DNA of 64,000 nucleotides, taken from the NCBI GenBank assembly GCA_030265395.1, contig JARFYF010000104.1, forward strand, positions 26,309,055 to 26,373,054. The letters run 5' to 3'. Every line of letters begins with the position of its first letter. Position 1 is the stretch's first letter. The position numbers and the translations under genes are program-made. The stretch comes from Rhina ancylostomus (taxonomy: Eukaryota). A model generated the notes under the pieces. That model was not told the DNA's origin. It saw only the letters and a program-made list of their open reading frames with translations, and ran no database searches. Shown in pieces: positions 595 to 62,840 of the stretch.

Positions 595-1335
595 GAGACA
601 TGAAACTGCAGATGCTGGAATCTGGACCAATAAATAAACTGCTGGAAGAACTTAGTGGATCAAACAGCATCCATGCAGGTTACGGACAGTCAATATTGTG
701 GGTCAAAATCCTGCATCAAGACTGAGATGTAGAGGGGAGATAGCCAGCATATAGACATGAGAGGGAGGAGTGAGACACAGAATGGTGATATGTGGAACTC
801 GTGTGTGTGTGTGTGGGTGTGTGGGGGGGGGTTGCTGATAGGCAGATGGAGTCAGGTGGGAAAGGGGGAGTGTTGAAACAGAGGCTGATAGGTGGAAACA
901 GATAAACAGATAAGGGAGAGATAATGGGCAGATGGAACCAGATAGGGGAGAAGAAGAGGGGATAGGAAAGGTGAACCAAGGGCGAAGAAACTTAGGTGGA
1001 TGGGTATATGGATGATGGGAAGATAAAACCAGGTGATGGGAGGGTAACAACTGTAGGTAACAGGGTGTGGAGGGATAGAAAAATTGAACAAAGTGAGAAA
1101 GAACTCTGGTGGACTGGTGGAAGCAAGAAACACAGGAGACCTGAAATTGGAAAATTCAATGTTCATACCATTGGGCTGTAGGCTACCCAAGGGGGTTATG
1201 ATGTGTTGTTATTCTTCTAGTTTGCATTTGGTCTCACTGCAGTGGAGAAGGTTGAAGACAGTCTGGAGGGTGTGGGAATGGGGATTAGAAATGACATGCA
1301 ACTGGAAGCTTAAAATGGCTGTTGTGGACAGTGTA
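595..1335 (-). mobile_element. Penelope-like element 3' fragment (GIY-YIG C-terminus, pyrimidine-rich spacer, tail)
   Basis: ORF 852..1190 begins LQPNGMNIEFSNFR, the same terminus as the 10.3 kb copy. Tail gatgctg...ttccagca and a decayed hammerhead motif near 690-725. Confidence 0.8.
800..833. repeat. (GT)n microsatellite followed by a G run
   Basis: gtgtgtgtgtgtgtgggtgtgtgggggggggg read directly. Confidence 0.85.
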
Positions 1336-1429
1336 TCTGATGGCTAAATCATGTTGAACATGCTATAGCCCCAAAGACTCAATGAATTCAGTAATTTCAG
1401 AAAACCAACCTTTCAAGTTTATTTCAGAA

Positions 1430-1935
1430 CTAGTTCTGAGGAAATATCATCAACCTGCAATGATACCTCAGTTTTTCTCTCCAGGATTTGCCTGACTTAC
1501 TGGGTATTTCCAGTATTCCCTTTTATTTCAGATTTCCAGTAATTTCAGTGTGTTGTATCTCATAATTCCAGAATATTTTTCTCTCGCTCTTCAGTTCTCA
1601 TTCATCTGCTTCTGATAGAACAGCATCGATTGACTTTTATATTAGGAGTACTGATGCAGGGTCTCGACCCAAAACGTCGACGATCCCACTGAGTTCCTCC
1701 ATCAGTTTGATTTTTGCTCTATATCACCTTTAGTCACTCTTGGGTCCACACTACCACAGCCATACCTTTTTGTTCTTGCCACTCTTCCTCAAATTAATTC
1801 TGATTTCTAACTTCAGTTTCATACAAGGTCATTGATTTGAAACTTTGCCTCAGTTGCTCTCTCCACTATTCTGCCTGACCTGATGATTATTTCCAGCATG
1901 TTCTATTTATGTCATATTTCCAGAATCTGAAGTTG
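1430..1935 (+). mobile_element. Three tandem decayed Penelope tail (pLTR) fragments
   Basis: ctgatgcagggtctcgacccaaaacgtcga at 1651-1680. Repeated gcctgac...atttccag motifs at ~1490 and ~1875. Confidence 0.65.
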
Positions 1936-2359
1936 TTTAATCATTTATAAATTGTAGTTGTATAATGCAAACTAAAAGTGGCATGTGAAAATGTAAAGTT
2001 CAGTTTGTTAGGAATGAAACAAAACAAATGCCACATTATAAAATCATATATTTTTCCCTTCCCTTACACTGTGACTTATGGTTAAAACAGTTCAAGTTGG
2101 TAAAGGCAAGAGTGGAACCCAAGCTCTAAACTAGCTAATTGCTGATACTGTATCAGCTACTATTGTTAGTGTTATAGTGCAAATTATAATACATATTGGA
2201 TAAGATAAAGGTGCAAGTGAAACATTGTGTGATTTGTGCAAAATGGCACTGCAAGAGCCATCTCCAATAATTTATAATGCAGTCATAAAATGAAATTCAT
2301 TCCTTTTTGCCAAATATTAGCTCAAAAAGACATCAAAATAGAATCTCATATCCTCAGAG

Positions 2360-2750
2360 GTTAAGAGGACTAGATCTATGCTCACTGGAATTTTGGTCAA
2401 CTCACAAGGTAATATTAATGAAACATATAAAATGCTTATGAGGCTAAATATTGTTTCTTCTGGTTAATGTGCCTAGAAAAGTCTCTTAAGTAGGGGACTG
2501 GCCATTTAGGATGAAGATGAGTAGAATTTTTTTTTCATCCAGTGTATCTTTGGAATTCTCTACCCAAAAGGCTGCTGTGGCTCCATTGCAATGTTCAAAG
2601 CAGAGATTGATACATTCTTGTACATCTGGGGAATGAAGGATTATGGGATTAGTAGAGGAAAGTGCAGCTGAGCTAAGAGATCAGCAATGATAATGCCAAA
2701 GCAGGCATGAGGGTTTAAATAGCTGACTCCTGCTTCTATTTCTTATGTTA
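2360..2750 (+). mobile_element. CR1 (HER1-like) LINE 3' end
   Basis: tggaattctctaccc...gctgtgg...gagattgat...actcctgcttctatttcttatgtt tail shared with other copies in the window. Confidence 0.75.
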
Positions 2751-2829
2751 AGCAAGATATCGCCAGATATCTTTGTATGAACTTTAAATACTACTTTAAT
2801 TAGATTGTTTATAGTCACTTGAACAACCA

Positions 2830-59500: not shown

Positions 59501-59689
59501 TCTTAATTGGTGTGCACTGAAGAGCACTCAACCATGGAAAGCATCATAATGAAGCTTAATCCTGTCCTCACTCAGTGTGGTATGTGTATTTTTGAATAAC
59601 ATGGCCTGCCCCTTGGAGCTGACTAAGTACAATTAGAGCCCCATGATGTTAGGAATGTTGACCTGCGAGAGGGCGCTTATGTTGATTTA

Positions 59690-60310
59690 CTTATTCTATC
59701 TGTGAATTTGTTGGTGCAGGTGGTACCTTTCCATGCCTTGGGGTGCCTGTTGTAGTTAGTCCATGCCTCAGTAGTGTACAGGAGGCCAGGGATCACTGCT
59801 TTCCAGACCTCATCTAGGTCTGAGGCCTTGATCCTCAAACACTGTTTTCCCTAAGGACCCAAAGGCTGTGCTGACACACAGAATTTCATCACTGATATCT
59901 GCCTCTGCTGAGAGGTGGCTCCCAAGATATATCAAACAGTCTAATTTTTCCATGATTTTGTACAGAGGGCAGCATTGTACAGTGGGGGCAGGTTGGCAGA
60001 GGATGTCCATTTTGCAGAAGTGCAAGGACCACCCTCCAGCATGTTTCAGTGAACACGTCAACAATCAGTTCCAACTTGGCCTCCAAACGTACACATATAC
60101 AAGTGCCACTTGTGTATTCCAGTTCAATAACTGAAACCAGGGAGACATTATTTCTGGGAGCAAAGGCAATGTTGGTTGAACAGTCTGTTCTGTAGATTAG
60201 CTCAAATCAACAGAAAACCCGTTAGAGACAACGTGCAGCATTGCAATGAGTAAGATTTGAGAAAAGTATTGTGCGCTATGACACAGCCTTGCTTGGCATG
60301 TTTGCACCAA
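59690..60310 (-). mobile_element. RTE-clade LINE RT C-terminal fragment
   Basis: ORF 59810..60064: IYLGSHLSAEADISDEI...STAFGSLGKTVFEDQGLR. Confidence 0.75.
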
Positions 60311-60549
60311 GACTTGGTCTATTGTTTAGATCACAGCTTGCATGCCATCATGAAGCAAACAAAAGATGGGAGTTGAATTTCTCTGAGCAGCCAAACTTGA
60401 GAAGGATGCACCACAGAAGAACTCTGTGAGGTAAAACGAGGGTCATGTCTAGGTTGATGCTGCTCCCTGCATTTCTCTGGAGCTGTCACATGGTGAAGAT
60501 AACATCCATCGTGCCTCTGGGAGGATAGAATCCACACTGCAATTCTTAC

Positions 60550-60840
60550 AGGACATGACAGGGGAGATACGGAGTTTTTTCCCCCTTTTTGAGATGTCTA
60601 GAACCAGGGATCAGCCATTTAGGACCAAGATGAGAAGATACTACTTCACTATAGGGTAGTGATGCTTTTGAATTCTCTAACCAACAGGGCTATGGAGGGT
60701 CTGTCAGTATAGATTTCTAGACATGAAGGGAATCAAGGATTATAGGGTTCATGCAGGAAAGTGGCACTGAGATAAAAGGTCAGCCAAGATCTAATAGTGT
60801 GGCACAGCATGCACCAGGAGCTAATGGAAGTGCCTACTCT
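60550..60840 (+). mobile_element. CR1 LINE 3' end
   Basis: tctagaaccaggga...ccatttaggaccaagatgagaag...gaattctcta...aagggaatcaaggattatagg. Confidence 0.75.
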
Positions 60841-62667
60841 AACTTCCATCTCTAATACTGTTATACTCTTTGGCCAATTGGAACAGGAGAACCCTTTGGC
60901 CAATTAATTGAGCAGAACTCTTAAAAAGACCTTCCCTGTGGCAGACAACCCTGTTGTTACCATAATCATATACAGGACGCCAGATTCCCAAGACACTCTC
61001 TTCCAAGCTTTTTCTCTGCAAGTGATTAGCAGGTGAACAGAGAAAAAGACCCAAGGACATTCTGAAAGCCTCCTTAAAAAAATGTAACTCCCCTACCAAC
61101 TCTTTGGATTCCCTGTCTTGAAATGGAGAAGGTGCATTCAGAATTACACTGAGAACTGAGTTTAAACCCCACCATAACAGTTGGGGAACTTAAATTCAGT
61201 TTGGTAATATACCAAATATAGCTAGAATACCAAGCTAATGTGCCTTTGGTAACCATGAAACAAATGGATTGCCACTTCTGATTTACCAGTCTCCTATGGA
61301 ACGGAAATCTGCCATCCACACCTGCTCTGGCTTGTCAGTGATTCCCTGCTCAGAAGAATGAGCCAAGAAGTGGAACTAATAGATAGCTTGTTTGAAGAGC
61401 GTGAATACATACAAAGGGCCAAATGATCTCCCACGGTGCTATATGATTCTCTGATTCAAGAGCGATGCCAAAATTTTTACCTGAAACAACATCACCGGCA
61501 ACAAATGAACTCATTTGCTTTCCACAGTGACATTGGCATGTAAACATTGATCACTAGGTTTAGCTACACAAGAGCCATCATCACAACTCTAAAGTAATTC
61601 CTGGAAAATAAAACAATTTGGGATACCCTACAGATGTTAAGTGTGCAGCCTAATACAAGGCTACTAAATTTAGTCATAATTCAACATTTTTCTTAAGACA
61701 AATGGCCTTCTGTATTTTGTTAATTTAGTCTCTTTGTTCAAAATACTGGATAATACAATATTACAATTCAAACATAACAATGAATTACTCAGATGAGATT
61801 ATGAAAATTATGTATTACATTTTTGTAAAGTGTAATCTCTCCAGTAGAAGAAAATACAAGGCACTCCAAAAACTGAACCAAACTAAAGCTTGTCTCATTA
61901 AGCACTAGAACATCAGCTTTAAAGGGCGTGTCACGGCTGACTCTGAAACAATGACTTTCACAGCTTTGTACAGCTGTCCATTTTGTGCTAATTAACTGTA
62001 AAGAATGATGTTCTTGTCATGGCCCATTAATTAACTTTCACTAAATGTGGGCATTTAAATGGTCCATCAAATTTAGGTATCTTCTGATATCAAATACTAA
62101 ATAAATCAGAGTATTTGACTAGAACAAGAAAAGGGTTAGTAATAAGCAGCCTTCAGCTGTCTCATGAGATCAGTGGCTGTGTGATAATGAATGGGGGATG
62201 GAGACCATTGGCAACAAACATCCAATCACAGGCAGTATCCTTTCAAGGAGCTTAAGGACAGATGAGTTCTGCCTGCCTAGTGAGGTGTAATCCCCTGAAA
62301 ACAACACCAAAATGAGTAATTCCCTTCCTTAATTTAGTAATAATTATTCATTCTCCATCTCACTTTATTAAGCATGTGTAATGAAGGCATGCAATCTGTT
62401 TAATATTATGTGAAAAATTGAGCATTGAAAACTACAAAGCTTCTAAAATATCAAAATGATGATCACAGTCTGATTCACTAAAACTTCCAGTCCTTGAGTC
62501 TCCAAAAATTAACAGTAGTTAAATTGCTGTGTCATTAGTTATCTCTGAACTCAGCTTGAAACTTCATCCAGCTATCACACTGTCTCCATAGCTGCTCAGA
62601 AATCCAGCAGAATATAGCAACAGGAAATAAGAGACGCGTGATTAAAAACTTGCTGTCAGTCTGCAGG

Positions 62668-62840
62668 CAACAGACACAAAATGCTGGGGTAACTCAGCAG
62701 GTCAGGCAGCATCTATGGAGGGAAATAAACAAGTCGAAGTTTTGGGTCGAGACCCTTCATCAGGACTGGAAAGGAAGAGGGCAGAAGCCAGAATAAGAAG
62801 GTCGGGGGAGGGGGAGGGAGAAGAGCACAGGCTGCAAGGT
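62668..62840 (-). mobile_element. Relatively young Penelope tail with hammerhead motif (runs into an N gap)
   Basis: Minus strand ccagtc-ctgatga-agggtctcgaccc-aaaa-cttc-gact, then atagatgctgcctgacctgctgagttaccccagca. Confidence 0.8.

Follow-up and report, generated by a model that had tools for sequence, protein, structure and literature searches.

Minimal type I hammerhead ribozymes are known from the pseudo-long terminal repeats (pLTRs) of Penelope-like elements (PLEs), in which their role has been called unclear (PMC8557442). The pLTR motifs share a CUGANGA box followed by an extra base, a G10.1-C11.1 pair, GAAA, a palindromic CG at 15.2-16.2, UH and a stem I of 3-5 base pairs (bp), and occur mostly as single motifs from truncated elements, with nearby pairs on opposite strands (PMC4209133). 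Neptune-clade PLEs that carry an endonuclease (EN) combine a reverse transcriptase (RT), a CX2-5CxxC linker and, at the C terminus, a GIY-YIG domain with heavy 5' truncation, an inverted 5' copy, an optional 30-40 bp tail and target duplications of ~10 bp (PMC8557442, PMC3846280); this linker, which separates RT from EN, marks both the Neptune and the Nematis clades (PMC8557442). In PAc, a Poseidon element of Anolis, reverse transcription initiates internally on the RNA, at two sites, and insertion is normal when the ribozyme is mutated (PMC11167929). Animal non-LTR retrozymes, reported in one chondrichthyan genome, also have a type I hammerhead derived from PLE pLTRs (10.64898/2026.07.22.740005). 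Here, we analysed a window of 64,000 nucleotides (nt) from the cartilaginous fish Rhina ancylostomus (GCA_030265395.1, contig JARFYF010000104.1, positions 26,309,055-26,373,054, forward strand), in which an earlier reading of the sequence (the original prediction) had placed 11 hammerhead motifs across the MAP1B locus. These repeats share the features listed above for pLTR hammerheads and Neptune-clade elements, and they are very probably 3' ends of Neptune-type Penelope-like retrotransposons that were truncated on the 5' side and have decayed, each with a minimal hammerhead.

The family is a very abundant PLE group with the known pLTR hammerhead arrangement. A search profile, built first from window copies and then from unbiased genome samples, picked out 18-21 pieces of heads or tails in the window, while reversed control DNA gave none. 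Exact matches to the 31-nt consensus of the original prediction number 209 in the 2.2-Gb genome, and matches to a relaxed core pattern 1,957; neither pattern had a match in the control. Our unbiased genome sample of 80 evenly placed 10-kb stretches, drawn from large contigs (688,504 non-N bases), held 159 profile matches, which scale up to a genome-wide total of about 4-5x10^5 and bear out the claim of a high copy number. Descriptor hits in coelacanth and Xenopus number 4,000-9,000 (PMC4209133), but the comparison is not like for like, since ~2,000 of the matches here pass a strict core pattern.

The element is organised as RT, Cys linker, GIY-YIG, a 3' untranslated region (3'UTR) of ~260-420 nt, hammerhead and tail. 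Genomic loci with the same head carry an RT with an xIDD motif, a Cx4Cx2C linker and, at the C terminus, a GIY-YIG in one open reading frame (ORF), and the linker was also found in the window at 10625-10735 and in loci L099 and L101. The nearest Atlas clusters carry HTH_animal, GIY-YIG and RVT_1 (scores 0.94-0.97), and the GIY-YIG piece of the window has 41,359 first-look candidates. Copies are flanked by target duplications of 10-15 bp; an automatic search found these at 24 of 210 matches versus 3 in the control, and only its seven clean stub cases are used below. Head-to-head arms were present at 26 of the 83 matches in the first 40 sampled stretches. Homology upstream of the head tapers off in each of the four pattern-picked sets, GIY-YIG being reached by 6/30, 2/30, 2/30 and 1/18 copies. 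In every subfamily that includes short stubs, other copies retain 40-500 nt of the subfamily's own 3'UTR, in some cases as far as GIY-YIG. Two further loci were noted. One (L104, 1271-5301) spans 4 kb and is built head to head: each arm holds remnants of RT and GIY-YIG, and each outer end a hammerhead. The other (L268, ~1430-1640; G000:C1 near 120934382) has five head-to-tail 35-nt hammerhead heads followed by one tail, a small array resembling a retrozyme, where dimerisation in cis would be possible.

The genome holds at least six subfamily heads. The core, CUGANGA ... GAAA ... UH, is present in the consensus of subfamilies A, C4 and B, whereas the U4A and A9C subfamilies (129 and 112 pattern matches) deviate from it at one base; these changes are fixed in whole subfamilies, each with its own 3'UTR and tail. 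All consensus heads have an A after position 9 and the palindromic CG at 15.2-16.2. By hand counts, the stems vary between subfamilies: the first stem I pair is C-G in subfamilies A, C4, C6 and C7, while 96 of the 100 subfamily B copies listed have U on the 5' side, facing A (81) or G (19), and the closing pair of stem II is G-U or A-U in B and G-C elsewhere. This covariation would indicate that the fold has been under selection in the source elements. The CUGANGA/GAAA core and stem covariation are both present, and the original proposal of a minimal type I hammerhead of PLEs is supported.

The heads found here also depart from described motifs. Their stem II is short (4-5 bp with a 2-4 nt loop) and so differs from those in PMC4209133. 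The 56 motifs shown in its Fig. S3 include none from a cartilaginous fish, and neither U4A nor A9C occurs among them, whereas A4 and C9 are fixed in subfamilies here. Core changes usually reduce activity, and a viroid hammerhead tolerates U4C (PMC3088659). In A9C heads, the next A might substitute for A9. Stems I and II form in predicted folds, and copies of A, U4A and A9C also show a competing pairing across the core. A literature search for U4A hammerheads found nothing, and Lunse et al. 2017 may list U4 or A9 variants; a search for a shark or ray description of the family likewise returned nothing specific, and the supplements of the retrozyme preprint may describe the chondrichthyan family.

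After insertion, the hammerhead appears to have decayed like its surroundings. In young subfamilies, substitutions affect 56/501 non-CpG core positions (11.2%) and 418/3693 tail positions (11.3%; p=1.0), and G12, which lies in a CpG, was lost in 33/66 copies as against 55/137 for tail CpG (p=0.23); subfamily B is omitted from these figures, its 5' core columns being one base out of register. Equal rates in core and tail argue that decay has been neutral, with no selection after insertion. Among the 159 unbiased matches, the core is kept in five (in the 2-nt-loop register), and two pass the full descriptor.

The ends of the copies bear on how the element is copied. The 3' ends of the 159 matches peak at model positions 100-110 (31) and 130-139 (61), giving two preferred ends ~30-40 nt apart, much as PAc has two 3' ends from internal RT initiation downstream of its hammerhead (PMC11167929). 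We considered that hammerhead cleavage sets the copy ends and rejected this: of 3,815 tails of subfamily A, none of the first 100 begins at the cut site; in a list of 1,767 that favours odd ends, ~6 of the first 100 stop there (an upper bound, because the pattern excluded the commonest base at the last place); and 36 inverted junctions are scattered over the head. These ends argue that ribozyme-cut RNA is not the template, and PAc likewise uses uncleaved RNA and has no ends at the cut site (PMC11167929). In the mechanism that we infer, the element protein would nick target DNA and reverse transcription would start inside the element's own RNA, downstream of the hammerhead by ~100 or 135 nt, as it does for the anole PAc in vitro. 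Copying would then run through the uncleaved ribozyme and usually stop early, for a large share of copies on reaching the opening bases of stem I, probably since this is where the RNA has its start, and the hammerhead fold would be under selection in source elements only. In PAc both strands are nicked and extended, which fits the head-to-head pairs seen here; PAc differs in belonging to the Poseidon clade and in having an ORF that starts inside the hammerhead (PMC11167929).

A pile-up of 5' ends at stem I suggests where that RNA begins. Among 57 unbiased young head-bearing copies, homology is lost within 15 nt of the core in 23, at 16-40 nt in 3 and further out in 31, inverted arms included, and the seven stubs whose target duplications are clean have their first base 3-9 nt ahead of the core. 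In long copies, C precedes the stem I AGT in 94% of 155. When a purine precedes AGT it is G in 66 among the first 100 of 841 matches, where 39% would be expected (hand count). Thirty of these loci resolved into 11 inverted arms, 2 long copies and 17 true stubs; the base before AGT in the true stubs is G in 14 and A in 3 (p=3e-4, a small sample), and in one locus (L326) the extra G falls outside the target duplication. An untemplated G is a mark of the copied cap in LINE-1 and SVA (PMC4859970), and the excess of G directly upstream of the stubs therefore fits a copied RNA cap.

The sequence at this point, YCAGTY, resembles the initiator consensus. The RNA thus likely starts at the A of YCAGTY, with the stubs as run-off cDNAs. 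It is tempting to go further, to a fuller reading that we regard as plausible while falling somewhat short of probable: a capped RNA would start at this A, in the 5' strand of stem I, stubs would be integrated 'strong-stop' cDNAs running from internal RT starts to the cap, and the ribozyme, in cutting off the first 32 nt, would serve as a self-decapping switch. In this reading, the ribozyme would be dispensable for copying because the U4A and A9C subfamilies still spread. If so, thousands of stubs would map both ends of the first Penelope reverse transcription step. Perhaps, instead, the pile-up reflects RT stalling at the base of stem I, or a target preference for G. A splice acceptor at the start of the stubs is not favoured. 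All long copies have a polypyrimidine tract and CAG at the stem I start, a strong acceptor-like site, and in D. virilis the intron ends at stem I (PMC4209133), but stubs have nothing in common in the bases upstream of the G. Sense copies with this site could act as cryptic exons in host introns. No description of a stem I stub pile-up with excess G was found in the available parts of PMC8557442 and PMC3846280.

Several observations weigh against parts of this account. Three RT-side pieces had no Pfam match and NCBIfam returned nothing useful for them, and the GIY-YIG hit in Pfam was below threshold. A full-length element with two direct pLTRs was found in none of 14 7-kb loci and in none of the 21 examinable among 30 RT-anchored loci, many of which have gaps; we infer the element's 5' structure, and its putative placement in the Neptune clade follows the linker motif, which Nematis shares, rather than an RT tree. 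The 3' peak at 130-139 adjoins the end of the profile, which sharpens it, and a sharp 5' start of the stubs would also be expected from a dedicated short non-autonomous RNA.

Such an RNA, starting at stem I and mobilised in trans, is the basis of an alternative in which the short copies would make up a non-autonomous family in their own right, comparable to SINEs or retrozymes. Besides the start of the seven clean stubs 3-9 nt before the core, 30 of the 69 well-kept unbiased heads lack upstream homology, and GIY-YIG lies upstream in only 13 of 158 classified unbiased matches. The stub subfamilies, however, all have copies with their own 3'UTR, and this shared, subfamily-specific 3'UTR with its graded 5' truncation argues that the short copies are not a separate mini-element, contrary to the mostly non-autonomous family proposed in the original prediction. 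Retrozymes of animals are tandem units with an intact hammerhead each, and tandem arrays are their mark (10.64898/2026.07.22.740005); here arrays such as L268 are rare, the window copies are dispersed and either single or inverted, with no tandem units, and copy ends do not fall at the cut site. We therefore consider a self-standing family unlikely. Chance matches to a short motif deserve almost no weight. The hammerhead was absent from the Rfam matches of a window scan (E<=10; 8 matches, all below their own gathering scores), as would be expected of chance matches, but the genome-wide exact and relaxed matches, against none in the control, and the empty reversed-sequence controls refute this explanation.

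A different possibility is that one or more of the copies in introns took on a host role in cutting or regulating the pre-mRNA of MAP1B, in parallel to the conserved hammerhead in the RECK intron of amniotes. MAP1B does lie on the minus strand of the window, as originally reported (Pfam MBL_MAP1B, E=4.6e-144). Exons were placed with sequence motifs: the large exon at 16413-22380 (minus; motif match and Pfam) and the last coding exon at 9735-9890 (minus; motif match with an acceptor AG, stop near 9735), exon 1 being ~27 kb past the right window end. An AATAAA at 3816-3821 (minus) lies at the likely end of the 3'UTR. Beside it, at 3810 and 3827, end two putative RNA contigs of a related organism, which are uninformative on cleavage, strand and level; they give a weak hint of a poly(A) site near 3810-3821. 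The copies at 690 and 1651 lie ~2-3 kb beyond this site and are therefore likely outside the MAP1B mRNA. Of the nine listed copies within the gene, four are antisense and five are sense in introns, one of the latter ~60 nt before the last acceptor, and precedents for co-option are known (PMC6155905, PMC3088659). Yet the window holds 18 matches where 14.5 are expected (p=0.21), an ordinary density that argues for no special tie to MAP1B, and there is no strand bias (10 plus, 8 minus). Domesticated RECK-type hammerheads are intact sense ribozymes under purifying selection, whereas no sense copy here keeps core and stems: those at 10019, 42667 and 62732 carry G12A, that at 26241 carries G8A, and that at 46945 keeps its core but has a stem I of 1 bp and forms part of a long hairpin with 46972. 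Minimal hammerheads, moreover, need a partner and cleave poorly (PMC4209133). On sequence grounds the hammerhead is likely inactive in every copy inside MAP1B, and co-option is very improbable. The window copies are neutral fossils, and the proposed link to a neuronal pre-mRNA is not supported.

Each of the 11 predicted places does contain a degenerate copy on the predicted strand, but the list missed ~8-10 pieces (1433, 1815, the 23066-23276 pair, 37171, 43588, 46800/46850, 51603 and 58894). The copies span at least five subfamilies. Core and both stems are kept in none of the 11, and complete core bases in only three window copies (35480 plus, 37558 plus and 46974 minus), each of which misses stem I or part of stems II and III, in keeping with the earlier remark that no copy is fully consensus. 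The remark that all share the same tail fails for the tail-less inverted pair at 46945 (minus) and 46972 (plus), for 26241, with its decayed tail, and for 58960, with ~15 nt of tail. The three heads said to be attached to GIY-YIG remnants do have them upstream, at 260-420 nt, and a fourth was found.

These remnants belong to units that we call P1 to P4. P1 is a truncated element past the likely poly(A) site, whose 3' end is a decayed A9C-subfamily head with full tail (596-726, minus); its GIY-YIG C-terminal remnant (1143-1298, minus) lies 417 nt upstream of the head, and a candidate 12-bp target duplication (597-608/1293-1304) has one mismatch. P2, sense in the last MAP1B intron, has a head and tail of the young subfamily C4 (9945-10057, minus; N7=A, G12A, G16.2A) that ends ~60 nt before the acceptor of the last exon. 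Its GIY-YIG remnant (10314-10646, minus) matches the L098 ORF at 70% (Pfam GIY-YIG E=0.008, under the curated cut-off), and an inverted 5' piece (10625-10735, plus) encodes the Cx4Cx2C linker of Neptune-type elements; the two share ~20 nt at the inversion point (10625-10646). P3 comprises a decayed, sense subfamily B head with G8A (26233-26275, minus), a linker and GIY-YIG remnant upstream of it (26568-27024, minus) and a 14-bp target duplication (26193-26206/27022-27035, one mismatch). P4 (37171-37657, both strands) has an inverted tail (37171-37262, minus), final GIY-YIG codons at ~37275-37306 (plus), then 3'UTR, and an antisense head with tail (37557-37657, plus).

The remaining copies are shorter. 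Near P1 lie an old subfamily B head with tail (1433-1561, plus), a second old B copy with a decayed 5' core (1815-1938, plus) and, between them, an A9C-subfamily stub (1646-1741, plus) with G12A and an internal tail deletion, in which a G directly before the stem I AGT is the first base; the C at core position 9 in the copies at 690 and 1651 is a subfamily trait. Subfamily B also supplies a copy antisense to MAP1B with complete core bases and no stem I (35480-35579, plus), a sense copy with G12A (42613-42701, minus) and one without a 5' core (43588-43672, plus). Two subfamily C7 insertions are a head-to-head tail pair without a 5' core (23063-23264, both strands), with a perfect 13-bp target duplication (23050-23062/23265-23277), and a tail-only copy (51603-51666, plus). 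A compound unit (46781-47003, both strands) joins an inverted tail pair (46800-46846, minus; 46850-46945, plus) to a tail-less inverted head pair (46944-46976, minus; 46972-47006, plus), with a weak 15-bp target duplication (two mismatches). A head-to-head pair at 58894-59004 (both strands) consists of a tail piece (minus) and a decayed head with short tail (plus), and the best-kept copy, of subfamily A (62649-62860, minus; sense), has G12A, G16.2U, a short tail and a 3'UTR stretch of ~93 nt that ends at an assembly gap.

Other features of the window were also noted. The MAP1B 3'UTR (3810-9735, minus) appears to be ~5.9 kb long and free of repeat matches, unlike the flanking DNA. Frames at 34255-34689 (minus) and ~47818 (minus) look like part of a CR1/L2-type LINE reverse transcriptase, namely its 3' end. 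There is a 97-nt inverted pair 1.3 kb apart (11021-11117/12422-12518), an exact 49-nt tandem duplication at 15824-15921, and a 60-nt duplication across an assembly gap (40041-40260) that is probably an artefact.

Hammerheads at the ends of PLEs have already been published, and the window copies have no special tie to MAP1B. Rather, roughly half a million insertions record how a poorly understood class of retroelements copies itself, and they point to the ribozyme as the candidate place where the RNA starts, as well as to natural variants of its core. Both bear directly on the role of the hammerhead in Penelope-like elements.

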